Shown here: piece by piece, positions 717 through 15,888 of the stretch
How positions within the stretch are numbered: the first letter of the stretch is position 1
Layout of the letters: the number at the start of each line of letters is the position of its first letter
Source of the DNA: a virus
Strand: one strand, 5' to 3'
Virus genome (UHGV): UHGV-0264118
DNA length: 16,029 nt
Position numbers and translations under genes: made by a program
The notes under the pieces: generated by a model
Database searches by the model: none
The model's input: the letters and a program-made list of their open reading frames with translations, nothing else
Told to the model about the DNA's origin: nothing

Positions 717-935
717 TCACAATCCCCATTGTTTGTTCTTAAGTTCGATCTCCTCCTGGCAACTTGCACAAGTCCGACAACCCTGAACGGCCAGGCGTCT
801 TCGTTCATCTATGGGATCGCCACACTTACAACAATGAGTGGCAGATATAGCCTGGTGGTTCAGACGACGCATTTTTATTGCTGTATTGCGCTGTAATTCT
901 TCGATTTCTGATGCTGAATCAATGATGTCTGCCAT
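717..935 (-). CDS. TraR/DksA-family C4 zinc-finger protein (lambda orf73-like)
   Basis: 72-aa ORF with paired Cys motifs (CCKCGD ... CRTCASC) in the TraR/DksA arrangement. Sits in the lambda ea/orf region between xis and exo. Confidence 0.65.
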   Translation of the reverse strand: MADIIDSASEIEELQRNTAIKMRRLNHQAISATHCCKCGDPIDERRRLAVQGCRTCASCQEEIELKNKQWGL

Positions 936-1033
936 CTTCCATTAATCCCTGAATTGTTGGTTAATACGCTTGAGGGTGAATGCGAATAATAAAAAAGGAG
1001 CCTGTAGCTCCCTGATGATTTTGCTTTTCATGT

Positions 1034-1249
1034 TCATCGCTCCTTAAAGAAGCCGTTTAACATGCCGATCGCCAGGCTTAAATGAGTCGGTGTGAATCCC
1101 ATCAGCGTTACCGTTTCGCGGTGCTTCTTCAGTACGCTACGGCAAATGTCATCGACGTTTTTATCCGGAAACTGCTGTCTGGCTTTTTTGATTTCAGAAT
1201 TAGCCTGACGGGCAATGCTGCGAAGGGCGTTTTCCTGCTGAGGTGTCAT
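1034..1249 (-). CDS. Small early-left protein, lambda orf61-like
   Basis: Predicted ORF 1034..1315. The ATG at 1249 (MTPQQENALRS...) is the likely true start. The upstream in-frame ATG at 1315 lies only 11 nt after the stop of the preceding gene and has no Shine-Dalgarno. Start is uncertain. Confidence 0.45.
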   Translation of the reverse strand: MTPQQENALRSIARQANSEIKKARQQFPDKNVDDICRSVLKKHRETVTLMGFTPTHLSLAIGMLNGFFKER

Positions 1250-1325
1250 TGAACAAGTCCCATGTCGGCAAGCATAAGCACACAGAATATGAAGCCCGCT
1301 GCCAGAAAAATGCATTCAGTGGTTG

Positions 1326-1517
1326 TCATACCTGGTCTCTCTCATCTGCTTCTGCTTTCGCCACCATCATTTCCAGCTTTTGTGAAAGGGATGCGGCTAA
1401 CGTATGAAATTCTTCGTCTGTTTCTACTGGTATTGGCACAAACCTGACTCCAATTTGAGCGAGGCTATGTGCCATCTCGATACTCGTTCTTAACTCAACG
1501 GGAGATGCTTTATGCAT
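1326..1517 (-). CDS. Small early-left protein, lambda orf63-like
   Basis: 63-aa ORF ([23 protein letters not shown]...), near-identical by recollection to lambda orf63. Overlaps the 3' end of the next ORF as in lambda. Confidence 0.6.
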   Translation of the reverse strand: MHKASPVELRTSIEMAHSLAQIGVRFVPIPVETDEEFHTLAASLSQKLEMMVAKAEADERDQV

Positions 1518-1678
1518 ACAGCCCCCCGTTTATTATTTATCTTCTCAGCCAGCCGCTGTGCTTTCAGTGGATTTCTGATAACAGAAAGGCCGGGAAATAC
1601 CCAGCCTCGCTTTGTAATGGAGTAGACGAAAGTGATCGCGCCTACCCGGATATTATCGTGAGGATGCGTCATCGCCAT
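1490..1678 (-). CDS. Small early-left protein, lambda orf60a-like
   Basis: 62-aa ORF (..[18 protein letters not shown]..) matching recollection of lambda orf60a. Its 5' end overlaps the exo stop by 10 nt. Start may be the ATG at 1672. Confidence 0.6.
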
Positions 1679-2349
1679 TGCTCCCCAAATACAAAACCAA
1701 TTTCAGCCAGTGCCTCGTCCATTTTTTCGATGAACTCCGGCACCATCTCGTCAAAACTCGCTATGTACTTTTCATCCCGCTCAATCACGACATAATGCAG
1801 GCCTTCACGCTTCATGCGCGGGTCATAGTTGGCAAAGTACCAGGCATCTTTTCGCGTCACCCACATGCTGTACTGCACCTGGGCCATGTAAGCCGATTTT
1901 ATTGCCTCAAAACCACCGAGCCGGAATTTCATGAAATCCCGGGAGGTAAACGGGCATTTCAGTTCAAGGCCGTTGCCGTCACTGCATAAACCATCTGGAG
2001 AGCAGGCGGTGCGCATACTTTCGTCGCGATAGATGATCGGGGATTCAGTAACATTCACGCCGGAAGTGAATTCAAACAGGGTTCTGGCGTCGTTCTCGTA
2101 CTGTTTTCCCCAGGCCAGCGCCTTAGCATTAACTTCCGGAGCCACACCGGTGCAAACCTCAGCCAGCAGGGTGTGGAAGTAGGACATTTTCATGTCAGGC
2201 CACTTCTTTCCTGAGCGGGGCTTTGCTATCACGTTGTGAACTTCTGAAGCGGTGATGACGCCGAGCCGTAATTTGTGCCATGCATCATCCCCCTGTTCGA
2301 CAGCTCTCACGTCGATCCCGGTACGCTGCAGGATAATGTCCGGTGTCAT
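1669..2349 (-). CDS. exo: Lambda-type 5'-3' exonuclease (Red-alpha)
   Basis: 226-aa translation ([65 protein letters not shown]...GEQWR) is essentially lambda Exo over its full length. Its start overlaps the bet stop (ATGA). Confidence 0.95.
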
Positions 2350-3131
2350 GCTGCCACCTTCTGCTCAGTGGCTTTCTGTTTCAGGAATCCAAGAGCTTTC
2401 ACTGCTTCGGCCTGTGTCAGTTCTGACGATGCGCGAATGTCGCGGCGAAATATCTGGGAACAGAGCGGCAATAAGTCGTCATCCCATGTTTTATCCAGGG
2501 CGATCAGCAGAGTGTTAATCTCCTGCATGGTTTCATCGTTAACCGGAGTGATGTCGCGTTCCGGCTGACGTTCTGCAGTGTATGCAGTATTTTCGACAAT
2601 GCGCTCGGCTTCATCCTTGTCATAGATACCAGCAAATCCGAAGGCCAGACGGGCACACTGAATCATGGCTTTATGCCGTAACATCCGTTTGGGATGCGAC
2701 TGCCACGGTCCGGTGATTTCTCTGCCTTCGCGGGTTTTGAATGGTTCGCGGCGGCATTCATCCATCCACTCGGTAACGCAGATCGGATGATTACGGTCCT
2801 TGCGGTAAATCCGGCATGTACAGGATTCATTGTCCTGCTCAAAGTCCATGCCATCAAACTGCTGGTTTTCATTGATGATGCGGGACCAGCCATCAACGCC
2901 CACCACCGGAACGATGCCGTTCTGCTTATCAGGGAAGGCGTAAATTTCTTTCGTCCACGGATTAAGGCCGTACTGGTTGGCGACGATCAACAATGCGATG
3001 AACTGCGCATCGCTGGCATCACCTTTAAATGCCGTCTGGCGAAGAGTGGTGATCAGTTCCTGTGGGTCGACAGAATCCATGCCGACACGTTCAGCCAGCT
3101 TCCCTGCCAGCGTTGCGAGTGCTGTACTCAT
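2346..3131 (-). CDS. bet: Red-beta single-strand annealing protein
   Basis: 261-aa translation ([82 protein letters not shown]...) matches lambda Bet. A GAGGT Shine-Dalgarno lies upstream. Confidence 0.95.
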
Positions 3132-3136
3132 CCGTT

Positions 3137-3433
3137 TTATACCTCTGAATCAATATCAACCTGGTGGTGGGCAATAGTTTCAACCATGTACCGGATGTGT
3201 TCTGCCATGCGTTCCTGAAACTCAACATCGTCATCAAACGCACGGGTAATGGCTTTTTTGCTGGCCCCGTGGCGTTGCAAATGATCGATGCATAGCGATT
3301 CAAACAGGTGCTGAGGCAGGCCTTTTTCCATGTCGTCTGCCAGTTCTGCCTCTTTCTCTTCACGGGCGATCTGCTGGTAGTGACGCGCCCAGCTCTGAGC
3401 CTCAAGACGATCCTGAATGTAATAAGCGTTCAT
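3137..3433 (-). CDS. gam: Gam (RecBCD inhibitor), short 98-aa form
   Basis: Translation [60 protein letters not shown]... matches lambda GamS. A good Shine-Dalgarno (CAGGAGTTCAGCCATG) precedes the start. Confidence 0.9.
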
Positions 3434-3508
3434 GGCTGAACTCCTGAAAATGGCTGTGAAAATATCGCCCGCGAAATGCCAGGCTGATTAGGAAAACAGG
3501 AAAGGGGA

Positions 3509-3799
3509 TTAGTGATTCAGGCCGTTACCGCGTCCGTCGAGAAAAACTTCCACGAGCAAATCACGGGTATAAGTGCGCTCGATGCCGCGATGCAGATATA
3601 GCCGTCCGCGTAAATTAGCTGATGCAGTCCAGGTACCATCTTTGTGTTTGACCAGCATTCCTGGCATGACCGCACCTCGATTAACGGTCTGCGTTCCGTA
3701 ATGTTGATGAACCATAAAAACTCCTGCCCGTAAGCTGGGCTGCTGAACATATAGAGACTTCTGCGCGTATTCAGGCGGTGGATGGCCGCCGGTTGTCAT
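3509..3799 (-). CDS. Hypothetical protein in the kil/cIII position
   Basis: Predicted 136-aa ORF (3509..3919) begins at a TTG. The first ATG ([11 protein letters not shown]...) at 3799 gives 96 aa with a weak GAGG upstream. GC-rich, no hydrophobic segment, no cIII-like motif. Family not recognised. Confidence 0.35.
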
Positions 3800-4273
3800 A
3801 ACTAAGCCGCCTCGTTGAAGCGACTGAGGTATGAGGTGTTGAGTTGATTTCAGCTGGTCACACCGACGTTCACACGTCCGTTTCACCCCTCGCACTCCCC
3901 GTAGCCTGCTGAAATTCAAGCTGCAGATCTAAGCGGTCATCGCAACGGTGAAGCGGTAAATCAGAAGATTGCCGCATTCCTGTGCCGTTGTGATGGATTT
4001 ATAATACCTATTGCTATTAATCATATCAATACGTATGGGTATCAATCGATAGCATTTGTTGTTATGCTGTTGATACTGAAAAGAATTTAATGTTGAGGTT
4101 TTTTGTGACATTCGACTCAAAATGGATTTTGCAATTAAATAACCAATTGATAACAATGAAAACATCACGGAGAACTAGATAGGCCAAATTACTTGCCACG
4201 AAGATAGTTGTAAGCGTTGATAACAATGGTATTGAGGAGGGATACCCCCGACAATTGCGTCAGGGGGGAGGGA

Positions 4274-4654
4274 TTATTGGGCTTTAATGTAATTTTTCAA
4301 CTTTGCAGTTTGCTCTACAGCGCTAGGAATGCATCCAAACATATTTGCGCATGAGGTTTGAACAACAATTTCGTTCTTATCGTTTCCTAAAGGTGTTTTT
4401 ACAACCTGATATCCAAGCACGGCACTATTTCCAATAGGAGTGTATGTGGAAATTACCGTTTCATCTGCCATCTGAATTTTCCAACCAGAATTCATTGCTA
4501 TCCAAGCTTTGGCTCTCGACCAATATGTATCGCATTGCTCTTTACCTTGACAGTAAACTGGTTGTTGAGCTTGTGCGGCAATTTGGGGATCTATTTTCTG
4601 AGCACATCCAGAGATGCTAATCAGAATAGCTGCTGTAACGAATAGTTTTCTCAT
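4274..4654 (-). CDS. Lipoprotein, likely lysogen-expressed moron in the rexAB position
   Basis: ORF MSMRKLFVTAAILISISGC|AQ... has an N-terminal signal peptide and lipobox (ISGC). The ATG at 4654 has an AAGGAA Shine-Dalgarno 6-7 nt upstream. Lies 48 nt downstream of, and co-oriented with, the repressor gene. AT-rich relative to neighbours. Confidence 0.6.
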   Translation of the reverse strand: MRKLFVTAAILISISGCAQKIDPQIAAQAQQPVYCQGKEQCDTYWSRAKAWIAMNSGWKIQMADETVISTYTPIGNSAVLGYQVVKTPLGNDKNEIVVQTSCANMFGCIPSAVEQTAKLKNYIKAQ

Positions 4655-4702
4655 TGACATTTCCTTTGTTTTGAATATACAACAAATAAATTGGCAAAAA
4701 AA

Positions 4703-5395
4703 TTATCCGTGTTTTCTATATGTCTGCGGCATGCTTCCAATGACTTTACCGAAGATGAACACCCGGTTCATCTCGTCTTTCTCGATCGGGTCCCACGGTG
4801 AGTAGCTCTTGTTATCAGAGATAACCAGCAGCTTATCCTTCATCATTTGCAGGCGCTTTACATGGGCTGTGTCGTCGTACAGAAACGCATAGATACCATC
4901 ACCGTCGAAAGATTTAACAGTGATATCAACGAACAAAAGATCACCTGGTTCGATCGTTCCTGACATGCTGTCACCGCGTACGTTAATGATGCGGATATTT
5001 TCTGCCTTCCTGCCATCGAACATGTGACGAGCATCGTCAAACGAGTACTCAACCGAGCGTAGAACTTCTACAAACTCACGATTGATGACACCCGGCCCGG
5101 CACTGACTTCTATATCAAGAACGTCAATCTTGAAGTATTTGGAATGGCTGACAGCAGGCTTCCCTGATTGTTGACCGTCATTTCTCATCGGGCCTATGCC
5201 TGATGAGAGCCACTCTGTTCGAACACCCAATGCATTAGCTATTTCAACAATTTTTGTTGAGCCGCGCGCGTTGCCGCTTGTCAGTCTCCAGATTGTGGGT
5301 TGAGCTACGCCAGACGCCTTTGCAAGAGCGCCTTGAGACATTCCAGATTGTTCCATCGCTAGGTTTAAGCGATCAGCAAGAGTTTCTTTTTTCAT
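4703..5395 (-). CDS. cI: CI-type prophage repressor (XRE-family HTH plus S24 LexA-like autopeptidase domain)
   Basis: HTH segment MSQGALAKASGVAQPTIWRLTSG. Ala-Gly cleavage site (EVSAGPG). S24 catalytic motifs GDSM and VKRL. The ATG at 5395 (MKKETLADRL) has no Shine-Dalgarno, consistent with a leaderless PRM-type transcript. The predicted TTG start at 5431 is less likely. Confidence 0.85.
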   Translation of the reverse strand: MKKETLADRLNLAMEQSGMSQGALAKASGVAQPTIWRLTSGNARGSTKIVEIANALGVRTEWLSSGIGPMRNDGQQSGKPAVSHSKYFKIDVLDIEVSAGPGVINREFVEVLRSVEYSFDDARHMFDGRKAENIRIINVRGDSMSGTIEPGDLLFVDITVKSFDGDGIYAFLYDDTAHVKRLQMMKDKLLVISDNKSYSPWDPIEKDEMNRVFIFGKVIGSMPQTYRKHG

Positions 5396-5505
5396 AAGTT
5401 TTAATTTATACGCTTGCGTATTGATGGTCAAAACACGTTTTGCTATTGATTGGGTTAATACGCATTGCTATTATCTATTCATTGCAATACCAATAGGAAT
5501 TGATA
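5396..5505. promoter_or_regulatory. Divergent repressor/cro promoter-operator region (PRM/PR-like)
   Basis: Intergenic region between divergent cI and cro. Near-palindrome ATACGC-TT-GCGTAT at 5408-5421 and related ATACGCATTGCTAT at 5457-5470. Candidate PR: TTGATT (5446-5451), 17-nt spacer, TATTAT (5469-5474). Candidate PRM on the minus strand: TTGACC then about 16 nt then ATAAAT, ending just upstream of the leaderless ATG. Confidence 0.5.
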
Positions 5506-5733
5506 ATGACAAATCAAACCATTCAACTCGCAATCAGTATTACAGGTAGTCAAAAACGACTGGCAGATCTCTGCGGTGTAGCCCAACCCACGGTTTGGCG
5601 TTGGCTACACGGTGGCGGAATTGATGCCCGCTATGTAATGAAAATTGTCTCAGCCACTGGTGGAAAGATTAAACCAGCAGATATTCGTCCCGACCTCGCA
5701 CCATTGTTTAACGTGAGTAATTCTTCCGCCTAA
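5506..5733 (+). CDS. Cro/YdaS-like small HTH regulator
   Basis: 75-aa ORF from the ATG at 5506 (predicted TTG at 5500). AGGA Shine-Dalgarno 7 nt upstream. HTH segment SQKRLADLCGVAQPTVWRW. Divergent from the repressor. Confidence 0.7.
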   Translation: MTNQTIQLAISITGSQKRLADLCGVAQPTVWRWLHGGGIDARYVMKIVSATGGKIKPADIRPDLAPLFNVSNSSA

Positions 5734-5763
5734 TCTGCGGAGTTAACTGATAAGGCAATTACT

Positions 5764-6303
5764 ATGCAACCAATTACATACCAACAGACTAGCGGATTTA
5801 CCCCGGCTGCGGTGATAAATCGTTCTCAAACAAAACAGGCGCCAGGCCACGAAAAAATCCGTGATGCCGTTCGCGCCTGGTCGGCTGCAGATAATCAGGA
5901 TGTTGTTGCCGCACTCATTGTGAATGAGTATCGGGAGCAGGGCGGCGGCACCATCGATTTCCCTGATGATGTCAGCCGTGCACGCCAGAAGCTGTTCCGC
6001 TTCCTCGATAACAAATTCGATTCTGAAAAATACCGAAATAACGTGCGTGAACTGACCCCGGCAATTCTGGCGGTACTACCGCTGGAATATCGCGGTTACC
6101 TGGTTGAGCAGGATAGCTTCATGGCCAGGTTGGCTGAAATGGAAAAGGAACTCAGTGAGGCAAAACAGGCTGTCATTCTCAACGCACCACGCCACCAGAA
6201 ACTGAAGGAAATTGGTGAAGGTATTGTATCGATGTTTCGTGTGGACCCAGATCTGGCTGGTCCATTGATGGCGATGGTTACTACCATGCTGGGGGCGATA
6301 TGA
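5764..6303 (+). CDS. YdaT-like or CII-like regulatory protein (family assignment tentative)
   Basis: 179-aa ORF directly downstream of the cro-like gene, in the position of cII/ydaT. Motifs EYREQGGG and LTPAILAVLP recall YdaT-family proteins, from recollection only. Confidence 0.5.
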   Translation: MQPITYQQTSGFTPAAVINRSQTKQAPGHEKIRDAVRAWSAADNQDVVAALIVNEYREQGGGTIDFPDDVSRARQKLFRFLDNKFDSEKYRNNVRELTPAILAVLPLEYRGYLVEQDSFMARLAEMEKELSEAKQAVILNAPRHQKLKEIGEGIVSMFRVDPDLAGPLMAMVTTMLGAI

Positions 6304-6389
6304 CAGGTTCAGAAATGGCGAAAGCCGGTCTGCTGGAACAGAACCGACTTTCAGGTGCAAATCGTAACACACTCATTGCGGGAGGAATT

Positions 6390-7319
6390 ATGGCAAACAC
6401 TGCTGAGATATTCAATTTTCCAGTGCCGGATGCGGCACAAAAGGAGCCGCGCGTGGCAGATCTCGATGATGGTTATACGCGCATTGCAAATGAGTTGCTG
6501 GAAGCTGTGATGCTGGCCGGATTAACACAGCACCAGCTTCTGGTCTTCCTGGCTGTCATGCGCAAAACATATGGCTTTAATAAAAAACTGGATTGGGTGA
6601 GCAACGAGCAACTGTCCGGATTGACCGGGATATTACCGCACAAGTGTTCTGCTGCAAAAAGTGTTCTGGTAAAGCGTGGGATTTTGATTCAGAGCGGGCG
6701 GAATATCGGTATTAATAATGTGGTCAGTGAATGGTCAACATTACCCGAATCAGGTAAGAAAAATAAAGTTTACCTGAAAGAGGTAAATTTACCTGAATCA
6801 GGTAAGAAAAGTTTACCCAAATCAGGTAAAGGCGTTTACCCGAATCAGGTAAACACAAAAGACAAACTAACAAAAGACAATATAAAACCTTTTTCGTCCG
6901 AGAATTCTGGCGAATCCTCTGACCAACCAGAAAACGATCTTCCTGTGGTGAAACCAGATGCTGCAATTCAGAGCGGCAGCAAGTGGGGGACAGCAGAAGA
7001 CCTGACCGCCGCAGAGTGGATGTTTGACATGGTGAAGACCATCGCACCATCAGCCAGAAAACCGAATTTTGCAGGGTGGGCTAACGATATCCGCCTGATG
7101 CGTGAACGTGACGGACGTAACCACCGCGACATGTGCGTGCTTTTCCGCTGGGCATGCCAGGACAACTTCTGGTCCGGTAACGTGCTAAGTCCGGCCAAAC
7201 TCCGCGACAAGTGGACCCAACTCGAAATCAACCGTAACAAGCAACAGGCAGGCATGATAGCCAGCAAACCAAAACTCGACCTGACAAACACTGACTGGAT
7301 TTACGGGGTGGATTTATGA
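6390..7319 (+). CDS. O: Replication initiator O (lambda O-like)
   Basis: From the ATG at 6390 (MANTAEIFNFPVP..., GGAGG Shine-Dalgarno 4 nt upstream). The C-terminal ~150 aa (..YSSENSGESSDQPENDLPVVKPDAAIQSGSKWGTAEDLTAAEWMFDMVKTIAPSARKPNFAGWANDIRLMRERDGRNHRDMCVLFRWACQDNFWSGNV..) is essentially lambda O. The N-terminal iteron-binding domain is related but divergent. Confidence 0.9.
   Translation: MANTAEIFNFPVPDAAQKEPRVADLDDGYTRIANELLEAVMLAGLTQHQLLVFLAVMRKTYGFNKKLDWVSNEQLSGLTGILPHKCSAAKSVLVKRGILIQSGRNIGINNVVSEWSTLPESGKKNKVYLKEVNLPESGKKSLPKSGKGVYPNQVNTKDKLTKDNIKPFSSENSGESSDQPENDLPVVKPDAAIQSGSKWGTAEDLTAAEWMFDMVKTIAPSARKPNFAGWANDIRLMRERDGRNHRDMCVLFRWACQDNFWSGNVLSPAKLRDKWTQLEINRNKQQAGMIASKPKLDLTNTDWIYGVDL
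6741..6853. repeat. Replication origin iterons inside the O gene
   Basis: Five copies of about 17 bp with consensus TACC(C/T)GAATCAGGTAA(G/A) at approximately 6742, 6771 (degenerate), 6790, 6814 and 6837. Followed by an A-rich tract at 6854-6890, as in ori-lambda. Confidence 0.75.
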
Positions 7320-8017
7320 AAAACATCGCCGCACAGATGGTTAACTTTGACCGTGAGCAGATGCGTCGGATCGCCAACAACATGCCGGAACAGTACGACG
7401 AAAAGCCGCAGGTACAGCAGGTAGCGCAGATCATCAACGGTGTGTTCAGCCAGTTACTGGCAACTTTCCCGGCGAGCCTGGCTAACCGTGACCAGAATGA
7501 ACTGAACGAAATCCGCCGCCAGTGGGTGCTGGCTTTTCGGGAAAACGGGATCACCACAATGGAACAGGTTAACGCTGGAATGCGCGTAGCCCGTCGGCAG
7601 AATCGACCATTCCTGCCATCACCCGGGCAGTTTGTCGCCTGGTGCCGGGAAGAAGCATCCGTTACCGCCGGGCTGCCAAACGCCAGCGAGCTGGTTGATA
7701 TGGTTTACGAGTATTGCCGGAAGCGCGGGCTGTATCCGGATGCAGAGTCTTATCCGTGGAAATCAAACGCGCACTACTGGCTGGTTACCAACCTGTATCA
7801 GAACATGCGGGCCAATGCGTTGACTGACGCGGAATTACGGCGCAAGGCTGCCGATGAACTGTCCTGTATGACCGCACGAATTAACCGTGGTGAGGCTATA
7901 CCTGAACCAGTAAAACAACTTCCTGTCATGGGCGGTAGACCTCTAAATCGTGCACAGGCTCTGGCGAAGATCGCAGAAATCAAAGCTAAGTTTGGGCTGA
8001 AAGGAGCAAGGGTATGA
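7316..8017 (+). CDS. P: Replication protein P (DnaB helicase loader)
   Basis: 233-aa translation MKNIAAQMVNFDREQMRRIANNMPEQYDEKPQVQQVAQIINGVFSQLLATFPASLANRDQNEL... is near-identical to lambda P. Start overlaps the O stop (ATGA). Confidence 0.95.
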   Translation: MKNIAAQMVNFDREQMRRIANNMPEQYDEKPQVQQVAQIINGVFSQLLATFPASLANRDQNELNEIRRQWVLAFRENGITTMEQVNAGMRVARRQNRPFLPSPGQFVAWCREEASVTAGLPNASELVDMVYEYCRKRGLYPDAESYPWKSNAHYWLVTNLYQNMRANALTDAELRRKAADELSCMTARINRGEAIPEPVKQLPVMGGRPLNRAQALAKIAEIKAKFGLKGARV

Positions 8018-8316
8018 CGGGCAAAGAGGCAATTATTCATTACCTGGGGACTCATAAGAAATTCTGTGCGCAGGACGTTGCCGCGGTAACAGGCGCAACG
8101 GTAACCAGCATAAATCAGGCTGCGGCTAAAATGGCACGGGCAGGTCTTCTGGCTATCGAAGGTAAGGTCTGGCGAACGGTGTATTACCGGTTTGCTACCA
8201 GAGAAGAACGGGAAGGAAAGGTGAGCACGAATCTGATTTTTAAGGAGTGTCGCCAGAGTGCCGCGATGAAACGGGTATTGAGGGTATATAAAAGAACATC
8301 AATGGGTACACAATGA
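8014..8316 (+). CDS. ren: Ren protein
   Basis: 100-aa translation MTGKEAIIHYLGTHKKFCAQDVAAVTGATVTSINQAAAKMARAGLLAIEGKVWRTVYYRFATREEREGK... matches lambda Ren. Start overlaps the P stop. Confidence 0.85.
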   Translation: MTGKEAIIHYLGTHKKFCAQDVAAVTGATVTSINQAAAKMARAGLLAIEGKVWRTVYYRFATREEREGKVSTNLIFKECRQSAAMKRVLRVYKRTSMGTQ

Positions 8317-8383
8317 TGAAACAGGTGAGTTGAGTTCAAACTGTAGTACAATTCTCTCCAGTTTGAACAGGAAAGAATATTCT

Positions 8384-8716
8384 ATGAACCCTTATATTTA
8401 TCTTGGTGGTGCAATACTTGCAGAGGTCATTGGTACAACCTTAATGAAGTTTTCAGAAGGTTTTACACGGTTATGGCCATCTGTTGGTACAATTATTTGT
8501 TATTGTGCATCATTCTGGTTATTAGCTCAGACGCTGGCTTATATTCCTACAGGGATTGCTTATGCTATCTGGTCAGGAGTCGGTATTGTCCTGATTAGCT
8601 TACTGTCATGGGGACTTTTCGGCCAACGGCTGGACCTGCCAGCCATTATAGGCATGATGTTGATTTGTGCCGGTGTGTTGGTTATTAATTTATTGTCACG
8701 AAGCACACCACATTAA
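8384..8716 (+). CDS. emrE: SMR-family multidrug efflux transporter EmrE
   Basis: 110-aa translation from the ATG at 8384 (MNPYIYLGGAILAEVIGTTLMKFSEGFTRLWPSVGTIICYCASFWLLAQTLAYIPTGIAYAIWSGVGIVLISLLSWG...) matches E. coli EmrE with its four transmembrane helices. The predicted ORF starts earlier at 8330. Confidence 0.95.
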   Translation: MNPYIYLGGAILAEVIGTTLMKFSEGFTRLWPSVGTIICYCASFWLLAQTLAYIPTGIAYAIWSGVGIVLISLLSWGLFGQRLDLPAIIGMMLICAGVLVINLLSRSTPH

Positions 8717-8747
8717 AAATAATTTGTTTCTAAACGACTAAAATATG

Positions 8748-8780
8748 GAGGCTCTTATATTTATATGAGCCTCGTTTTAT
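8748..8780 (+). terminator. Rho-independent terminator downstream of emrE
   Basis: Perfect 7-bp stem GAGGCTC (8748-8754) / GAGCCTC (8767-8773) with a 12-nt loop, followed by GTTTTATGCTTTTT. Confidence 0.6.
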
Positions 8781-8972
8781 GCTTTTTGTTAATGTCTTTA
8801 TTTTTTTATGTATTCTTTTGTGCTTTCAAGATTATGGCGTAAGAAAATTGCAATACGATTATTGTTGTATATTCAAGATAATGTGACCTTAATTGTCTTT
8901 TTAAATAAAAATTAAACAAAAATTATATCCCACCACTAAGGTTTATAAAAGCATACGTTAGCAGGTGTCACC

Positions 8973-10499
8973 ATGAAAAAAGCCATAGCATATATGCGAT
9001 TTTCATCACCAGGTCAGATGTCTGGCGACTCATTAAACCGACAGAGAAGACTTATTGCTGAATGGTTAAAGGTAAATAGTGATTATTATCTTGATACCAT
9101 AACATATGAAGATTTAGGATTAAGTGCATTCAAAGGAAAGCATGCACAATCAGGAGCTTTTTCGGAATTTTTAGATGCTATAGAGCATGGTTATATATTG
9201 CCAGGAACTACATTGTTAGTTGAAAGTCTGGACAGACTTTCAAGAGAAAAAGTCGGTGAAGCGATTGAACGTCTGAAATTGATTTTGAATCACGGTATTG
9301 ATGTTATAACTCTTTGCGACAATACAGTCTATAATATTGACTCTTTGAATGAGCCATATTCATTAATAAAAGCCATACTTATAGCACAAAGGGCAAATGA
9401 AGAAAGCGAGATAAAGTCAAGTCGGGTTAAATTATCATGGAAGAAAAAACGGCAGGATGCACTGGAATCAGGTACGATTATGACGGCGTCTTGTCCGAGA
9501 TGGCTCTCCTTAGATGACAAAAGAACGGCTTTTGTTCCAGACCCCGACAGGGTGAAAACTATTGAGCTAATTTTTAAACTCAGGATGGAAAGGCGCTCAT
9601 TGAATGCAATAGCCAAGTATTTAAATGATCATGCTGTAAAGAATTTCTCAGGAAAAGAAAGTGCATGGGGACCTTCTGTAATTGAAAAATTATTAGCGAA
9701 TAAAGCTCTGATAGGTATATGCGTACCTTCATATCGTGCAAGAGGTAAAGGAATAAGTGAAATCGCTGGCTATTATCCCAGAGTCATATCAGATGATTTG
9801 TTTTACGCTGTACAGGAAATTCGGTTGGCACCTTTTGGTATTAGCAATAGTAGCAAAAATCCTATGTTGATAAATCTACTTCGAACAGTTATGAAGTGCG
9901 AGGCTTGTGGTAATACCATGATTGTTCATGCGGTATCTGGAAGTTTGCATGGCTATTATGTTTGTCCGATGAGAAGACTGCATCGATGTGACAGGCCATC
10001 AATAAAGAGAGATTTGGTTGATTATAATATCATTAATGAGTTGCTTTTTAATTGTAGTAAAATCCAACCAGTTGAAAACAAGAAAGATGCTAATGAAACT
10101 TTAGAGTTGAAAATTATTGAGCTCCAGATGAAAATTAATAATTTAATTGCTGCATTATCTGTTGCGCCTGAAGTTACCGCTATAGCAGAAAAAATCAGAG
10201 TATTAGATAAGGAATTACGAAGGGCTTCTGTATCATTAAAAACTTTGAAGAGTAAAGCGGTGAGTTCACTTGGTGATTTTCATGCTATTGACTTAACCAG
10301 TAAAAATGGGCGAGAGCTATGTCGTACACTTGCCTATAAAACATTCGAAAAAATCATAATCAATACAGATAATAAAACCTGTGATATCTATTTTATGAAT
10401 GGCATTGTTTTTAAACACTATCCTTTAATGAAAACAATATCCGCCCAGCAGGCGATAAGTACTCTCAAATATATGGTTGATGGTGAGGTTTATTTTTGA
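8973..10499 (+). CDS. ybcK: Large serine recombinase (YbcK-like)
   Basis: 508 aa. N-terminal resolvase-type catalytic motif AIAYMRFSSPGQ (Y-x-R-x-S nucleophile). C-terminal Cys cluster (CEACGN...CPMRRLHRCD) and a coiled-coil segment typical of large serine recombinases. AGGTG Shine-Dalgarno upstream. Markedly AT-rich gene. Confidence 0.85.
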   Translation: MKKAIAYMRFSSPGQMSGDSLNRQRRLIAEWLKVNSDYYLDTITYEDLGLSAFKGKHAQSGAFSEFLDAIEHGYILPGTTLLVESLDRLSREKVGEAIERLKLILNHGIDVITLCDNTVYNIDSLNEPYSLIKAILIAQRANEESEIKSSRVKLSWKKKRQDALESGTIMTASCPRWLSLDDKRTAFVPDPDRVKTIELIFKLRMERRSLNAIAKYLNDHAVKNFSGKESAWGPSVIEKLLANKALIGICVPSYRARGKGISEIAGYYPRVISDDLFYAVQEIRLAPFGISNSSKNPMLINLLRTVMKCEACGNTMIVHAVSGSLHGYYVCPMRRLHRCDRPSIKRDLVDYNIINELLFNCSKIQPVENKKDANETLELKIIELQMKINNLIAALSVAPEVTAIAEKIRVLDKELRRASVSLKTLKSKAVSSLGDFHAIDLTSKNGRELCRTLAYKTFEKIIINTDNKTCDIYFMNGIVFKHYPLMKTISAQQAISTLKYMVDGEVYF

Positions 10500-10610
10500 G
10501 TAATAATCACTTTTTCAACCGTGCTATAGTAAGAAAGTTAGGTAAGTACAATAAAATTATCTATCCTGAACGAAGCGTCCTGAGCTATGGTTTTACTATA
10601 GAGACTGCCA

Positions 10611-10934
10611 ATGGATGCTGGCGTTCTCGTTCTAGCAGTTCAACAATACCCAATCACAAAACAATTCACTGATAACGAACTTTGCACACTCGCCTGGTTA
10701 TGGCGAGCAGGGAATGTGATGTTAATTACCTACCAGAACGTTACTCCTCTTCTTCAGGTTGCGGAGCATCGTGAAGCTGGTCGCTTCACTTCTATCGAGC
10801 AAGAATATCCCCAGATACTCAATAAGGCACAGGCAATCCTTGCCAGAGAAACGGCACATGTAAAATTCCGGCCGTGGCAGGATGATAAGTGGAGTCGAGT
10901 TTTGCCGCATTTACGTTCGGATCGATTACAGTAG
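10611..10934 (+). CDS. Hypothetical protein (107 aa), coding status uncertain
   Basis: ORF with a weak ribosome-binding site. No recognisable family. Flanked upstream by a 9-bp inverted repeat. Confidence 0.3.
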   Translation: MDAGVLVLAVQQYPITKQFTDNELCTLAWLWRAGNVMLITYQNVTPLLQVAEHREAGRFTSIEQEYPQILNKAQAILARETAHVKFRPWQDDKWSRVLPHLRSDRLQ

Positions 10935-11395
10935 ATTCCAATTAACAATGAGAAACACATAGCCACCCCGTGGTATTGAAACCATATAATGTTGGATTTG
11001 AAAACAGATCTTTTTCCATGTATTAATAACTACATCCCCGCGAGTGATTCAAAAAGGAGGGCCCAATTTTGTCCGAGTTTTTGTATTCCCCCGCATGCCG
11101 CTGCGGAGCACTACATCTGAGTGTCTGACTAGGGGATAAAATTAGACTGGATAGTGAGAAGAAAGTGGCGTGCTAGGCTGTGCCGAGTGCTACCAGTACA
11201 CCCTGGGGGTGTGCAGCTTTCGCCGAGACTGTAGTGGGTATCGGTTAATGCACGAAAAACCGAGAGGTCAGACAACCAATTTGCCGTAGGATTGTTTCCG
11301 GTGCGATACCGGTGTACTAACTGAAAGCAATGCGAAAAAGCATAAACTCGGTCCTTCAGTCGCCCTACACACTATTTACTAAGAAGGGCTAAAGC

Positions 11396-11752
11396 ATGGA
11401 TACAATTATCACATGGATGGGAGATCGTCTGTTGGGGTGGATAACAAACAAATCCGATCTGCGGCAGAGGGCAATCACTGGATTAACTCCTGCGATTTAT
11501 TCAACAATTTTATATACTGAAAAATTAAAACGTGGTGAGCCTAATAACCCAAACGAAGAAGAAAAACTTTATAGGCTTTGGTATGAAGCGTCTTCCCAAG
11601 TCGTAGACTTTGATCGAGAGCTGGCTAAAAGATGTTTAGATAAATCAGAATATTGGCTTCATTCTGAATTATATAGCCCTGAGAAAGTTGGAGAGCTAAA
11701 CATTTCTTTGGTTGGTATGAAGGCAACGCTTGAAGGAATAAAGCACAATTAA
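11396..11752 (+). CDS. Hypothetical protein (118 aa)
   Basis: AT-rich ORF (MDTIITWMGDRLLGWITNKSDLRQRAITGL...) with an AAGGG Shine-Dalgarno about 9 nt upstream. No recognised family. Preceded by a ~430 bp non-coding GC-richer region. Confidence 0.45.
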   Translation: MDTIITWMGDRLLGWITNKSDLRQRAITGLTPAIYSTILYTEKLKRGEPNNPNEEEKLYRLWYEASSQVVDFDRELAKRCLDKSEYWLHSELYSPEKVGELNISLVGMKATLEGIKHN

Positions 11753-11841
11753 AACCTTTGATTTGCGATAATCAACTCGCCATAATCATGTCATCGGAGC
11801 CTGAACAACTCCGGTGACTTCTGCGCTAAACGGGGACGTTT

Positions 11842-11943
11842 ATGCGCACACACAATCCAAACTCTCTTCTCCCTCCACAGATGCAGAAATGCACCTGCGA
11901 TATATTGTATCCAGCGTTTGACCTCTGCGGAGGTGAAGCGTGA
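11842..11943 (+). CDS. ylcH: Small protein YlcH-like (33 aa)
   Basis: Translation [33 protein letters not shown]. Its stop overlaps the GTG start of ybcN (GTGA). Below the 60-aa cutoff of the ORF track, found by manual translation. Confidence 0.5.
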
Positions 11944-12395
11944 ATCTCCCACAAGATGGCATCAAATTACATCGCGGTAACTTCACCGCTATCGGTCGGC
12001 AGATCCAGCCTTATCTGGAGGAGGGCAAATGCTTTCGCATGGTGCTTAAACCGTGGCGTGAGAAACGCAGTCTTTCCCAGAATGCACTCAGCCACATGTG
12101 GTACAGCGAAATCAGTGAATACCTCATCAGCAGGGGTAAAACGTTCGCTACTCCAGCTTGGGTAAAAGATGCTCTCAAACACACATATCTCGGTTATGAA
12201 ACCAAAGACCTGGTTGATGTCGTAACCGGTGATATCACCACTATCCAGTCGTTACGCCATACCTCCGATCTTGATACCGGAGAGATGTATGTCTTCCTGT
12301 GTAAGGTTGAAGCCTGGGCGGTGAATATTGGCTGCCACCTGACTATTCCGCAGAGCTGCGAGTTCCAGCTGCTCCGCGACAAGCAGGAGGCGTAA
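11940..12395 (+). CDS. ybcN: NinB/Orf-family recombination protein (YbcN-like)
   Basis: 151 aa from a GTG start with a GGAGGTG Shine-Dalgarno 5 nt upstream. Motif [19 protein letters not shown] parallels lambda NinB RSLDQNRKLW. Confidence 0.8.
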
Positions 12396-12565
12396 TGGCT
12401 ACACCGCTTATTCGTGTCATGAACGGACACATCTACAGAGTACCAGATCGTCGTAAGCGTAAACCGGAGCTGAAGCCTTCCGAAATACCAACACTGCTCG
12501 GATATACCGCCAGCCTGGTTGATAAAAAATGGTTGCGATTGGCAGCAAGGAGGAATCATGGCTGA
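12395..12565 (+). CDS. ninE: NinE-like small protein (56 aa)
   Basis: Manual translation [56 protein letters not shown]. Start overlaps the ybcN stop (TAATG). The 3' end overlaps the ybcO start. Confidence 0.7.
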   Translation: MATPLIRVMNGHIYRVPDRRKRKPELKPSEIPTLLGYTASLVDKKWLRLAARRNHG

Positions 12566-12848
12566 TTTGAGAAAAGCAGCGCGTAGTCGGGAATGCCAGG
12601 TAAGAATCCCTGGCGTATGTAATGGCAACCCTGAAACGTCTGTACTGGCACATATCCGGCTGACTGGATTGTGCGGCACCGGTACCAAACCGCCAGACCT
12701 GATTGCCACCATTGCATGTTCTGCCTGCCACGACGAAATCGACCGCCGCACACATTTTGTCGATGCTGCATATGCAAAAGAATGCGCGCTGGAAGGTATG
12801 GCGAGAACACAGGTTATCTGGCTGAAAGAGGGGGTTATTAAGGCGTGA
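12558..12848 (+). CDS. ybcO: YbcO-like Cys-rich putative nuclease (96 aa)
   Basis: From the ATG at 12558 ([64 protein letters not shown]...). The predicted ORF starts upstream at 12519 inside ninE. Confidence 0.8.
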
Positions 12849-13207
12849 ATACCTACAGCATCACATTACCCTGGCCTCCGAGCAATAATCGCTATTACCG
12901 CCATAATCGCGGGCGCACGCACGTCAGCGCAGAGGGGCAGGCATACCGCGATAACGTCGCCCGAATCATTAAAAACGCAATGCTGGATATCGGCCTGGCT
13001 ATGCCTGTGAAAATCCGCATTGAGTGCCACATGCCGGATCGCCGTCGCCGTGACCTGGATAATCTGCAAAAAGCCGCTTTTGACGCACTCACTAAAGCAG
13101 GTTTCTGGCTGGATGATGCTCAGGTCGTTGATTACCGCGTTGTGAAGATGCCTGTTACCAAAGGTGGGAGGCTGGAACTGACCATCACCGAAATGGGGAA
13201 TGAATGA
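12845..13207 (+). CDS. rusA: Holliday-junction resolvase RusA
   Basis: 120-aa translation [104 protein letters not shown]... matches E. coli RusA. Confidence 0.95.
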
Positions 13208-13344
13208 TGTTTGAGTTTTATATGGCAGAACGTCTTCGCCACCGCTGGGGGCGTCTGCGCTTATATCGTTTCCCCGGTTCTGTTTTGACCGATTACCGAA
13301 TACTGAAGAATTACGCCAAAACCCTGACAGGAGCAGGAGTATGA
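13204..13344 (+). CDS. ylcG: YlcG-like small protein (46 aa)
   Basis: Manual translation [46 protein letters not shown]. Start overlaps the rusA stop (ATGA). Confidence 0.55.
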
Positions 13345-13429
13345 AGTCAGAGATAACAATCAACTAATACTGTTTCGTTGATTTTTGCTTGTAATTGGCG
13401 TTCTGGTCTGATTTTTGTGGAGTAAGTTG

Positions 13430-13813
13430 ATGCGTGATATTCAGATGGTTCTTGAGCGTTGGGGAGCGTGGGCGGCTAATAATCATGAAGATGTGACCTG
13501 GTCGTCCATTGCCGCCGGTTTTAAGGGATTAATTACTTCAAAAGTAAAATCTCGCCCGCAATGTTGTGACGATGACGCGATGATCATTTGCGGGTGCATG
13601 GCCCGTCTGAAAAAGAACAACAGCGATTTGCACGATTTATTAGTAGATTATTATGTAGTCGGTATGACATTCATGTCACTGGCAGGTAAGCATTGCTGCT
13701 CTGATGGTTATATCGGGAAAAGGTTACAGAAGGCTGAGGGCATAATTGAAGGGGTGTTAATGGCATTAGATATCCGGTTAGAGATGGATATCGTTGTTAA
13801 TAACTCTAATTAA
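13430..13813 (+). CDS. quuD: Late-gene antiterminator Q, phage 82 type (QuuD-like)
   Basis: 127 aa from the ATG at 13430 ([34 protein letters not shown]...[16 protein letters not shown]...). GGAGTAAG Shine-Dalgarno upstream. The predicted TTG start at 13415 is less likely. Confidence 0.85.
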
Positions 13814-13846
13814 TACGCCAATTATTTACTAAAAGTTATTAAAAAT

Positions 13847-13865
13847 GGGGCGTTGAAACGCCCCC
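13847..13865 (-). terminator. GC hairpin with a flanking T-tract on the minus strand (candidate nmpC terminator or element of the late regulatory region)
   Basis: Stem GGGGCG (13847-13852) / CGCCCC (13859-13864) with loop TTGAAA. On the minus strand it is followed by ATTTTTAATAA. Confidence 0.4.
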
Positions 13866-13952
13866 AAAAATAAAGGGTAATATATAACAGAAGGTTTGTA
13901 TAGTTAGAAGCAAGGTTGTGCTTCTAAAGGAAGTGGCTTGAGGGAGCCACTT

Positions 13953-13990
13953 ATATGTTGGGGAGGCAAAGCCTCCCACAACATATCTTT
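13953..13990 (+). terminator. Candidate tR'-like intrinsic terminator downstream of Q
   Basis: Stem of about 11 bp, GTTGGGGAGGC (13957-13967) / GCCTCCCACAAC (13971-13982), loop AAA, followed by ATATCTTTT on the plus strand. Lies about 145-170 nt downstream of the Q stop. Confidence 0.45.
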
Positions 13991-14001
13991 TAGTAATCAA
14001 A

Positions 14002-15084
14002 TTAGAACTGGTAAACCATACCTACAGCAACGATATCATCGGTAGCAACGCCAGATGCTTTCGTGAAATCGCTCTTATCAATCAGGTTGATTTTGTAGTC
14101 AACAAAAGTGGACATATTTTTGTTGAAGTAATAGGTTGCACCTACATCAACATATTCAACCAGGTCCTGATCACCCCAAACACCCAAGTCTTTTCCTTTA
14201 GAATGCAGGTAAGCAACGGATGGACGCAGGCCGAAGTCGAACTGATATTGTGCAACAGCTTCGAAGTTTTGTGCTTTGTTGGCAATATGGTTATTACCAA
14301 AAACAGTCATGTTCTGGGTTTCAGAATAGGTGGTGGCCAGATAGATGTTGTTCGCATCATATTTCAGACCAGCTGCCCATACTTCAGCATTTTGACCAGA
14401 AGCATTCAGACCGTTGTTACCGTAGATAACCTGATTATTAGTGCGATCAGATTTAGCATAGGTTGCACCCACGCCGAATCCTTCATACTCATAAGTAGTT
14501 GAGAAACCGAAACCATCGCCATTAGCTTCAGTTACTTCATTTCGGTCATTTTTGCCCTGATACTGAGCTGCAAAGTTCAGGCCATCAACCAGACCAAAGA
14601 AGTCGTTGTTACGATAAGTTGCAACACCTGTGGTGCGACCAGTCATGAATACATCTGTTTGGGTCCAGGTATCGCCACCGAATTCTGGCAGAACGTCAGT
14701 CCACGCACCGATGTCGTATGCTACACCGTAGTTACGGCCGTAATCGATTGAGCCGTAGTCACCGAATTTCAGGCCTGCAAATGCAAGACGGGTTTTGTCT
14801 TTGGAGGAACCTTGAGATTCAGCGCGGTTGCCTTTGAATTCATATTCCCACTGACCGAAACCAGTCAGTTGATCGTTGATTTGGGTTTCACCTTTGAAGC
14901 CAAGACGGGCATAAGTAGTATCACCATCATCTGCATCATTAGAGGAGAAGTAGTGCTTAGCATTAACTTTCCCGTACAGATCCAGCTTGTTACTGTCTTT
15001 ATTATAAATTTCAGCTGCCTGAGCAGACATCGCCATCAGTACTGATGCAGCTACAGCAGAAATTGCCACTGTTAATTTTTTCAT
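14002..15084 (-). CDS. nmpC: Outer-membrane general porin (OmpC/OmpF family), NmpC-like
   Basis: 360 aa. Signal peptide [23 protein letters not shown]|AEIYNKD. Beta-barrel porin hallmarks and C-terminal ...VAVGMVYQF. Convergent with Q, between Q and the lysis genes. Confidence 0.9.
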
Positions 15085-15672
15085 CGTGAGCCCTTTTTTT
15101 TGAACTATTATTAAAAAATGATGTCACTGCGCGATAAATATTCATCTAATCAATGTGATTATTTCAAGATGTAAGTTTTAGTTTCTCATTTAATTTGTGA
15201 AGTAGATCTCTATTTTTATCTGAACTTTTTCTATCGAAACCTATTTATGGCTCTTATTTGAACAAAAATAAACCTATTAGCTAATTTATATTAATGGCTG
15301 TTATTTATGGGGGTTCTATAATTCGGCAGTTTAATTTAAATCAACTAAAAATAACGTCTGAAATTATTTATTGGTTATTTGTTGAGGTTTTCTTATGTAT
15401 TTGTGGTGGAGTTTTGAACACTCGGTAGCATTCTCATAAATATCATTCAGTGGTTTACGTACGTAAAAAATTGGTTATGCTGTTAAGAGTGGTTACTTCG
15501 TCACACAGCTTAAACCCGCCGTCGAGCTGGTTTTTCCATTTTTTGAGTCTCGATATTAGCTGATAACTCAATACCTGAGTTATTCACTGACTCCGAGTCT
15601 GTTACGTTTCTGCTTTTTTGCGATACGTTGTATTCCCTCAATTTACACCCGCTTTGTCTGCGAGGTGGGGTT

Positions 15673-15888
15673 ATGAAATCCATGGATAAGTTAACAACGG
15701 GTATCGCCTATGGCACCTCAGCAGGTAGTGCCGGTTACTGGTTTTTACAGCTGCTCGATAAAGTCACGCCCTCACAGTGGGCAGCAATAGGTGTGCTGGG
15801 TAGCCTGGTATTTGGCCTGCTGACGTACCTGACAAACCTTTATTTCAAGATTAAAGAAGATAAGCGCAAGGCTGCGAGAGGTGAATAA
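15673..15888 (+). CDS. essD: Class II holin, phage 21 S-type (EssD-like), dual-start
   Basis: 71 aa from the ATG at 15673 ([71 protein letters not shown]). MKSM dual-start motif. GAGGTGGGG Shine-Dalgarno upstream. Confidence 0.9.

Follow-up and report, generated by a model that had tools for sequence, protein, structure and literature searches.

In phage phi80, the immunity genes follow the order cI, gene 30/cro, cII, M3 RNA, gene 15/O and gene 14/P, and in CP-933P and Rac the corresponding systems are PaaR2-YdaS-YdaT and RacR-YdaS-YdaT. YdaS and YdaT are considered the equivalents of Cro and CII (Casjens, 2003 and Jobling, 2018, both as cited in PMC9986795). Jurenas (2021; PMC8630535) also equated them with Cro/CII and called YdaT homologous to phi80 CII. 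YdaT of CP-933P/Rac is a tetrameric POU-like helix-turn-helix (HTH) protein that activates the leftward repressor-establishment promoter (PMC9986795, PMC11879457). Its operator was defined as TTGATT-N6-AATCAA (Prolic-Kalinsek, 2023), and Rac YdaT turns on the reverse racR promoter and binds also over the ydaS promoter, ribosome-binding site (RBS) and first codons (Wons, 2025). Here we analyse the immunity region (4703-6303) of the viral genome UHGV-0264118, a stretch of 16,029 nucleotides (nt) that we call the window throughout and that is part of a lambdoid prophage. We conclude that this region is very probably the lysis-lysogeny switch of a DLP12/Bievrevirus-like lambdoid prophage whose right-hand operon is of the phi80 type, with a CI repressor, a YdaS-family Cro and a 179-amino-acid (aa) CII analogue. 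The identities and order of these genes are clear, and their layout is conserved in characterised and viable phages; the mechanism proposed below is read from protein families and from the positions of promoters and operators.

The window shares with phi80 the gene order given above, an S24-type repressor, a gap of about 85 nt between cII and O with a predicted antisense promoter over the O start, and, before ybcN, a nin leader that has a dyad operator. Also, the preliminary description of this DNA had seen an unusual recombinant regulatory logic here, but cro followed by a YdaT-type cII is the classical phi80 gene 30/cII arrangement, with the same 30-nt spacing. Unlike the window, phi80 has N, nutL and tL1A/tL1B on the left, its CI (about 23% identity) and Cro are of other specificity types, and O and P show only 42% identity or family-level similarity. 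The same layout is found in phi80, HK639, HK225, mEp237 and the Enterobacter phage CobraSix: a repressor (S24-type or other), a divergent cro for a small HTH protein, 2-30 nt further on a cII of about 180 aa, and after about 85 nt an O-like gene. In phi80 and HK639 the 85-nt gap between cII and O holds the oop-like M3 RNA. HK022 and HK639 resemble the window in having no N gene, and HK639 and CobraSix share with it the phi80-type CII and a leader element upstream of the kil block; HK022 and HK639 differ from it in carrying putL directly after pL.

The module is also known from isolated phages. From kil to emrE the window is 96-97% identical in nucleotides to 4A7 (Bievrevirus), Lambda_4C10, Perceval, 1W, 3W, PhiR68_2 and other PhiR phages, and the 4A7-type/DLP12-like phages have the same N-less layout (kil, pL, cI, cro, cII, O, P, ren, emrE, ybcK). 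They differ in the cargo between pL and cI, which is an ASCH gene with a hypothetical gene, HipA, GevT or others and not the 128-aa lipoprotein of the window, and the pL-proximal leader of 4A7 is only 86% identical to that of the window. Among 5426 complete E. coli genomes, cII is present in 2197 (about 40%; at least 95% identity and at least 80% coverage) and the cI and cro pair in 719. The immunity module is already known and among the commonest in E. coli prophages, and the Cro/CII logic of YdaS and YdaT has been published.

The cro and cII genes

The cro gene (5506..5733, plus strand; the open reading frame, ORF, begins at 5500 or 5506) encodes a YdaS-family HTH protein of 75 aa, is the first gene of the pR operon and is divergent from the repressor. 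Its product matches the Pfam family YdaS_toxin (PF15943) with 54.5 bits against a cut-off of 30, belongs to PHROG 35 (transcriptional repressor) and is 68% identical to BTP1 Cro, 59% to HK639 Cro and 32% to Rac YdaS. It is followed, after the 30-nt gap, by cII (5764..6303, plus strand), with O next downstream. The 179-aa product of cII, of the phi80/YdaT type, matches YdaT_toxin (PF06254) with 102.9 bits against a cut-off of 21, and PHROG 163, 'CII-like transcriptional activator', with E=1e-66 over the full profile (positions 1-168 of 168). Identity is 66% to phi80 CII (residues 1-180), 66% to mEp237, 73% to CobraSix, about 50% to HK639 (51%) and HK225, and 35% to Rac YdaT. A match to CP-933P YdaT (PDB 8BT1) was found at E=3.7e-4. 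In the sequence alignment to PDB 8BT1 and 3C4R, the recognition helix alpha-3 reads RQKLFRFLD here and TQKIFRWLD in CP-933P YdaT, the arginine being conserved. The YdaS-like Cro and the YdaT/CII-like gene proposed in the preliminary description are borne out by the two Pfam scores. Its further likening of the pair to ydaS-ydaT of Rac holds for the families and not for closeness, since CII is far nearer to phi80 (66%) than the pair is to Rac (32% and 35%).

With CP-933P and Rac the window shares the families of Cro and CII, and it also contains the operator TTGATT-N6-AATCAA and, in its CII, nearly the recognition helix of CP-933P YdaT. The systems differ in other respects. Identity is about 30-35%, YdaT has 140-162 aa there versus 179 aa in the window, and RacR and PaaR2 are not S24 autocleaving repressors, unlike the CI of the window. 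Also, the CP-933P/Rac operator lies at the ydaS/ydaT junction, whereas the boxes of the window lie at the nin promoter and at the cro start. A CP-933P-type box at the cro/cII junction as a pRE site is missing here and in phi80-type relatives: no TTGATT-N6-AATCAA-like site with up to two mismatches occurs in 5560-5900, and none is found at the cro/cII junction of phi80, HK639, HK225 or CobraSix. A sequence resembling the box, at cII +48 of mEp237 and Klebsiella phage 5, probably owes its form to coding constraint. We regard the 179-aa protein as a CII analogue, and by analogy with YdaT of CP-933P/Rac a role in repressor establishment would be expected for it.

The family names could suggest that the two genes form a toxin-antitoxin pair or a pair of toxins; RefSeq labels the second product 'toxin YdaT domain-containing protein' and the Rac proteins are toxic upon ectopic expression (PMC5700377). 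We consider this extremely unlikely, because experiments show regulators equivalent to Cro and CII and no true toxin-antitoxin system (PMC8630535, PMC9986795, PMC5917428), and because the genetic context here is a complete immunity region. The label 'toxin YdaT', which spreads through RefSeq, is misleading, and the gene should be named as a CII analogue.

The cII-O gap and the mosaic joints

The replication initiator gene O (Pfam PF04492, Phage_rep_O) occupies 6390..7319 on the plus strand, within an ORF open from 6300. The preliminary description had noted that this ORF overlaps cII at 6300-6303. The ATGA overlap is mechanically present, but the meaning given to it was not supported, as the probable start of O is at 6390. 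The ATG at 6390, which has a GGGAGG/GGAGG Shine-Dalgarno sequence in front of it, is the position to which Met1 of lambda O and Met1 of phi80 gp15 (O) align, and a start there leaves a gap of 86 nt between cII and O, as in phi80, HK225 and mEp237. On the minus strand, a pO-like promoter with an extended -10 was predicted (-35 TTGAAT 6415..6410, -10 CATAAT 6392..6387, 17-nt spacing); its -10 lies over the O ATG and its geometry is that of lambda pO in a control scan. The stretch 6379-6422 is 84% identical to phi80. The promoter may give rise to a candidate oop/M3-like antisense RNA on the same strand, from about 6380 down to about 6305, which contains a 15-bp hairpin (z=-2.85) and would end near the cII stop codon. 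The cII-O stretch occurs in 21 variants among relatives, in which substitutions are mostly non-synonymous in the frame of the extension and clustered in the hairpin loop, one variant having a 1-nt deletion. We consider it likely, with reasonable confidence, that O starts at 6390, that 6304-6389 is a pO/oop-like unit and that the overlap is an artefact of ORF calling. The public annotation of a 339-aa O in RefSeq ('replication protein', start at 6300) is probably 30 codons (90 nt) too long.

O is also the place where lambda homology resumes. Five ori iterons (TTACCYGAATCAGGTAA, 6741-6852) lie inside O and are not those of lambda, and the point where lambda homology begins, 6853, corresponds to the base right after lambda's fourth iteron. 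As the iterons have their own sequence, the origin specificity is not lambda's. In the classical arrangement, specificity resides in a unit made up of the O N-terminal domain and the iterons, while the C-terminal part of O goes with P. From sequence comparison, the replication module is a chimera in which an O N-terminal domain and iterons of its own are joined to the C-terminal part of O, P and ren of lambda. In this sense, the claim that the replication genes are essentially lambda O/P/ren is right from 6853 onward and fails for the O N-terminal domain and the five iterons.

In the window, the immunity region sits between lambda-like and DLP12-like blocks. Positions 740-3515 (orf61 to gam, exo and bet included) are 97% identical to lambda, and 6853-8289 (O C-terminal part, P and ren) 94.9%; lambda homology stops leftward at 3515 (gam/kil) and restarts at 6853. 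P and ren (7316..8316, plus strand; Pfam PF06992, Phage_lambda_P, and PHROGs) are 95% identical to lambda. DLP12, the cryptic prophage of E. coli K-12, is matched by 8103-10538 and 11757-16029, blocks that hold ren, emrE and ybcK and then ylcH, ybcN, ninE, rusA, quuD, nmpC and essD. The Salmonella phage BTP1 is homologous over 4704-5693 (cI, oR and cro; 73% nucleotide identity) and at oL/pL (3991-4089). As BTP1 goes on from there with other genes on both sides, the informative joints lie immediately past pL and immediately past cro, and none of them falls between cII and O.

The cI gene contains a further joint. Its part for the C-terminal S24 half (4703-5259) is about 90-96% identical in prophages with another N-terminal DNA-binding domain and another cro (about 1500 E. 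coli genomes and phage Turner). The CI of Turner is 82% identical overall, but matches at the DNA level only over 4704-5259, its N-terminal domain being different and its Cro 45% identical. Most of the genomes outside the 719 with the cI and cro pair match only this half of cI (query positions 1-452), which indicates the joint. The start of Turner homology at the cII ATG was rejected as a junction, since it reflects the arbitrary start of a linear record. From these alignments, the real mosaic joints are at 3515 (gam/kil), at about 3991 just downstream of pL (versus BTP1), inside cI at about 5154-5259, at about 5693 after cro (versus BTP1) and at 6853 inside O. The module junction that had been placed at the YdaT/O boundary is not among them, as the alignments put the lambda junction inside O.

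These results bear on the possibility that the region is an unusual and recent recombinant circuit, in which lambda replication genes were joined at the YdaT/O overlap to a repressor of the CI type and a ydaS-ydaT pair of the Rac type. The genome is indeed mosaic, Pfam names the two genes YdaS and YdaT, and the ORFs do overlap at 6300-6303. However, the order and spacing of cI, cro, cII and O are the same in phi80, HK639, HK225, mEp237 and CobraSix, the CII is closer to phi80 than to Rac YdaT, the lambda junction and the likely O start both lie away from the overlap, and about 40% of complete E. coli genomes have the arrangement. We hold such a circuit to be very unlikely and favour the phi80-type switch.

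Repressor, early transcription and the kil leader

The cI gene (4703..5395, minus strand) encodes 230 aa from the ATG at 5395. Its ORF reaches a TTG at 5431 (242 aa), but the ATG, which is also the choice of RefSeq, is probably the start. The CI/LexA-type architecture of the preliminary description agrees with the domains HTH_3 (PF01381, E=1.5e-6) and Peptidase_S24 (PF00717, E=1.5e-18), both over their cut-offs, and PHROGs label this leftward repressor as transcriptional repressor/CI-like. In an alignment that took in the CI proteins of lambda, phi80, HK639 and BTP1, Ser143 (GDSM), Lys180 (VKRL) and the Ala-Gly of VSA-GPG line up with Ser149, Lys192 and Ala111-Gly112 of lambda CI. Identity to BTP1 CI is 86%.

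From repeats common to 3988-4046 and 5404-5505 we derived the operator dyad YAATAC-N6-GTATTR. With up to one mismatch it occurs five times in the 16 kb (4002, 4027, 5406, 5456 and 5485), always in oL or oR, when about 0.1 sites would be expected by chance. The predicted oL comprises 4002-4019 and 4027-4044, with one mismatch each, and a weak third site at 4071-4088; the predicted oR comprises 5406-5423, 5456-5473 and 5485-5502. A promoter scan placed pL on the minus strand (-35 TTGATA 4029..4024, -10 TATTAT 4006..4001; 10 of 12 matches), overlapping oL, and pR on the plus strand (-35 5446-5451, -10 5469-5474), overlapping oR. The pL/oL region is 76% identical to BTP1. A candidate pRM (minus strand, -35 5431..5426, -10 5408..5403) would start its RNA at or beside the cI ATG, which suggests a near-leaderless cI mRNA like those of lambda cI and PaaR2.

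BTP1 resembles the window in its related oL/oR and in carrying bstA, a defence/moron gene, between pL and cI. It differs in having nutR and a canonical 93-aa CII rightward and N, ral and cIII leftward. BTP1 thus pairs a similar CI and Cro with N, nut, cIII and canonical CII, which shows that the CI/Cro pair is combined independently of the CII/N equipment. From the similarity of repressors and operators, it is possible that prophages of the window type and BTP1 show cross-immunity.

The slot between pL and cI, which holds rexAB in lambda, contains in the window a gene for a predicted lipoprotein of 128 aa (4274..4660, minus strand; lipobox ISGC; PHROG 16082, function unknown). The gene has a GC content of 0.37-0.39 and a moron-like look, and this version is present in only 12 of the 5426 E. 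coli genomes. Given that relatives hold there ASCH with a hypothetical gene, HipA, GevT or, in BTP1, BstA, the slot appears to be a cargo/defence hotspot co-transcribed with the repressor.

The usual equipment for antitermination of the early operons was looked for in the window and not found. A tblastn search of the whole window with the N, CIII and CII proteins of lambda and BTP1 and with phi80 N gave only chance-level matches, and no Pfam or PHROG match for lambda CII or CIII was found. The small leftward ORFs between kil and cI match no PHROG. Neither pL nor pR is followed by a pair of boxA and boxB; one exact boxA (14070) and one boxB-like hairpin (6771) were all that turned up, and as both fall inside genes elsewhere they were discarded as nut candidates. 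TTGC-N6-TTGC repeats, the sites of canonical lambda CII (about 97 aa), are absent from both strands. The absence of N and cIII beside a Q-type gene, as first described, is thus confirmed by tblastn, PHROGs and the nut search together with the PF06530 match at 13415-13813. A canonical CII with nut sites and an N gene was looked for and not found, so that this part of the description stands.

The usual assumption for lambdoid phages that lack N is that they rely on put (PMC12315714). We built a put covariance model (R1) from 20 diverse putL sequences. It scores the putL of HK022, HK639 and CobraSix at 88-93 bits and HK022 putR, which was outside the training set, at 36.6 bits. With this model neither the window nor the whole genome of 4A7 (49 kb) gave a put RNA, the best score in 3400-8500 of the window with filters off being 5.5 bits. 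By eye, the leader has AACGGC...CAGGAATGCGGCAAT in common with put; as the covariance model finds nothing, we treat this resemblance as chance or as a non-functional remnant. The complete 4A7 record has Q annotated and not N. Since 4A7 is likewise without N and put, the lack of N is real, includes nut and put as well, and is a trait of the phage type and not of this copy alone. Rfam gave no match over the whole window. As a separate observation, locus L071 (IMG/VR contig 2910425090_000005) at about 1209-1290 keeps stem I of put, followed by the boxA-like CGCTCTTTAACAA in place of stem II, and may be a put/nut hybrid leader.

A scan for intrinsic terminators showed no enrichment: five were found versus 4.8 expected in 3400-8400, and seven versus 6.3 in 8000-16029. 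Between pR and Q there is no rightward hairpin comparable to lambda tR2. The control scan on lambda gave 33 terminators versus 18.6 expected, including oop, tR2 and the tL terminators. In phi80, HK639 and HK225, a canonical intrinsic terminator lies just upstream of the kil-leader element; in the window and 4A7 it is absent, as are the preceding gene or genes. With these terminators absent, the simplest reading is that pL reads into kil/gam/bet/exo and pR through cro/cII/O/P/ren without processive antitermination.

The first gene of the pL operon is kil (3509..3715, minus strand), whose product of 68 aa matches PHROG 294 (Kil) with E=2.5e-38 and shares 40% identity with Kil of phi80 and 36% with KilR of Rac. 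Upstream of it, on the same strand, lies a two-hairpin leader element (3770..3836) that is kept in phi80, HK639, HK225 and 4A7; we met it first as a 61-nt match to HK225 and phi80, and a pattern scan of IMG/VR gave at least 120 contigs that have it. In 22 distinct sequences, seven pairs of hairpin 1 show compensatory double changes and hardly any pair is broken, and folding z-scores of the element range from -2.5 to -4.9. An AUG sequestered in the outer stem opens a short ORF that always begins MTTGGHPPP and usually has 16-21 aa; in the lineage of the window this ORF has no stop codon of its own and runs in frame into kil. It is a reasonable guess that the element controls the toxic kil via translation or attenuation. 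Rfam assigned the element to no family (ALIL, at 20.8 bits against a threshold of 50 and on the wrong strand, was not used), and the small RNA KilS of Rac, considered as a homologue, has no sequence similarity to it. The pL-proximal leader (3837-3995) as one large structure was also rejected, its z-score of -1.37 not being significant.

The loss of N could also mean decay, that is, a defective remnant in which N, nutL and cIII were deleted and the early-left operon is poorly expressed. K-12 DLP12, a close relative, is heavily deleted, and in comparison with phi80, HK639 and HK225 the window lacks the first gene or genes and the intrinsic terminator upstream of the leader element, and has the short leader ORF fused to kil. 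Against this, the same N-less layout is found in phages known as particles or plaques (4A7, Lambda_4C10, Perceval, the PhiR phages grown on E. coli C or MG1655, and Turner) and in at least 46 copies of this leader type from IMG/VR, and the complete 4A7 genome has neither an annotated N nor put. We find decay quite unlikely. Alternatively, an unrecognised cis-acting RNA, either the 160-nt leader at 3837-3995 or the two-hairpin element at 3770-3836, might replace N and put, as the general assumption of put dependence in N-less phages (PMC12315714) would suggest. The two-hairpin element covaries, is widespread in pL operons and stands at the positions of annotated terminators of phi80 and HK639. 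However, it coexists with put or N (in put-carrying phages it follows putL on the same strand at a distance of 111-1800 nt) and stands downstream of terminators, so it does not replace them; in the pR operon, the 30-nt gap before cII is too short for such an RNA, and the folding of the pL-proximal leader is ordinary. This explanation is in our opinion unlikely.

For the phi80-type switch, which we prefer, the families and the positions of promoters and operators suggest the following course. CI would bind oL (4002-4044 and the weak third site) and oR (5406-5502), repress pL and pR, and maintain its own synthesis and that of the downstream lipoprotein gene from the pRM-like promoter. Upon SOS induction, activated RecA would lead to self-cleavage of CI at Ala-Gly via the Ser/Lys dyad, and Cro, the YdaS-family HTH protein, would then take over at oR. 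The CII analogue would activate a leftward repressor-establishment promoter, while cII expression is probably damped by the candidate pO/oop-like antisense RNA of the 86-nt gap between cII and O. The early operons appear to be transcribed without need of a processive antiterminator, and the late genes would still depend on Q.

Several observations weigh against parts of this scheme. No pRE-type promoter or CII site was located between cro and cII, so that the function of CII is inferred by homology and position. The terminator scan covers intrinsic terminators and not Rho-dependent ones, and the structured leader at 3770-3836, which aligns with zones annotated as terminators in phi80 and HK639, might still act in termination or regulation. 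In the oop-like hairpin, the U-tract that follows is interrupted and no Rfam family reaches its threshold (STnc450, 15.8 versus 37 bits). Additionally, the 6300-6389 extension is open in nearly all relatives, which leaves the long form of O a possible product. Viability, moreover, is known from relatives such as 4A7 and not from the prophage of the window itself.

Candidate targets of CII on the route to Q

A second place where the CII analogue may act lies far downstream. At the head of the block containing ylcH, ybcN/ninB, rusA and Q there is a nin-region promoter (11758..11786, plus strand) in which TTGATT-TGCGAT-AATCAA (11758-11775) forms the -35 and the spacer, followed by a -10 CATAAT at 11781-11786. 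This box is the only exact match to the CP-933P YdaT operator in the window, where about 0.001-0.005 would be expected by chance. It is followed by a highly conserved leader of about 190 nt, to 11939, that extends up to ybcN/ninB. The record of phage 82 (X92588) has a putative promoter annotated in the same region, with a 'possible regulator-binding site' just downstream. In the literature searched we found no published regulator for this promoter.

The half-sites of the nin box are essentially invariant and its spacer variable among the window, phage 82, K-12 DLP12, 4A7, HK639, CobraSix and KO-TP1, the right half-site of the last being TATCAA. Among IMG/VR relatives there are at least 11 different spacers, and some contigs have two promoter cassettes. 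At the nin position phi80 has a symmetric TTGATA-N6-TATCAA, the sole box in its 46-kb genome, and in 4A7 the box at this position is likewise the sole one in 49 kb. A phi80/YdaT-type cII is present in every complete phage found with the nin element. An exact box downstream of cII occurs in 42 of 56 IMG/VR loci with a YdaT-type cII versus none of 44 with a lambda-type cII, a difference that we take as supporting evidence only, because these loci are closely related and not phylogenetically independent; three to four boxes lie elsewhere in the contigs with lambda-type cII.

A further candidate is the palindrome TTGATA-ATGACA-AATCAA at 5500..5517, which covers the Shine-Dalgarno sequence and ATG of cro and overlaps the promoter-proximal operator. 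It has one mismatch to the CP-933P operator and fits TTGATW-N6-WATCAA exactly. The palindrome is found in 60 IMG/VR relatives and not in BTP1, whose CII is of lambda type; in 4A7 it has one further mismatch. Its position is comparable to that of the Rac YdaT site on the RBS and first codons of ydaS. Across immunity types, the presence of a box near cro proved not robust.

We tentatively propose, as a possibility that we would put below an even chance, that in lambdoid phages of this large group CII binds the dyad at the nin promoter as a second direct target and, in the lineage of the window, perhaps the palindrome at 5500-5517 as a third. Occlusion of the nin promoter would then delay Q and do the job of the paQ antisense RNA of lambda, and in phages of the window type, without N, nut and put, it might replace antitermination as the main timer of the delayed-early and late genes. 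Q itself (13415..13813, plus strand) is an antiterminator of the QuuD/phage 82 type (PF06530, Phage_antitermQ, E=6e-53) in a block 97.6% identical to K-12 DLP12.

Around this block the window also differs from K-12. Positions 10538-11757 are not in K-12 DLP12, which has ybcL and ybcM instead; here there are two ORFs without assigned function (10611-10934 and 11396-11752), the second of which ends 5 nt before the operator of the nin promoter. Between Q and the lysis genes, the window has an intact nmpC-type porin gene (14002-15084, minus strand), the K-12 counterpart of which is broken by IS5, and by this gene there is a strong terminator at 13864-13847.

As first stated, the finding was a correct but ordinary annotation, of practical use as a correction. 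The operator at the nin promoter and the leader of kil could matter more, the former as a candidate second target of CII on the route to Q and the latter as a widespread structured leader with a polyproline ORF before the toxic kil. If the proposed binding of CII at the nin promoter is true, Rac YdaT could cross-regulate the DLP12 ylcH-rusA-quuD operon of K-12, which has an exact box.

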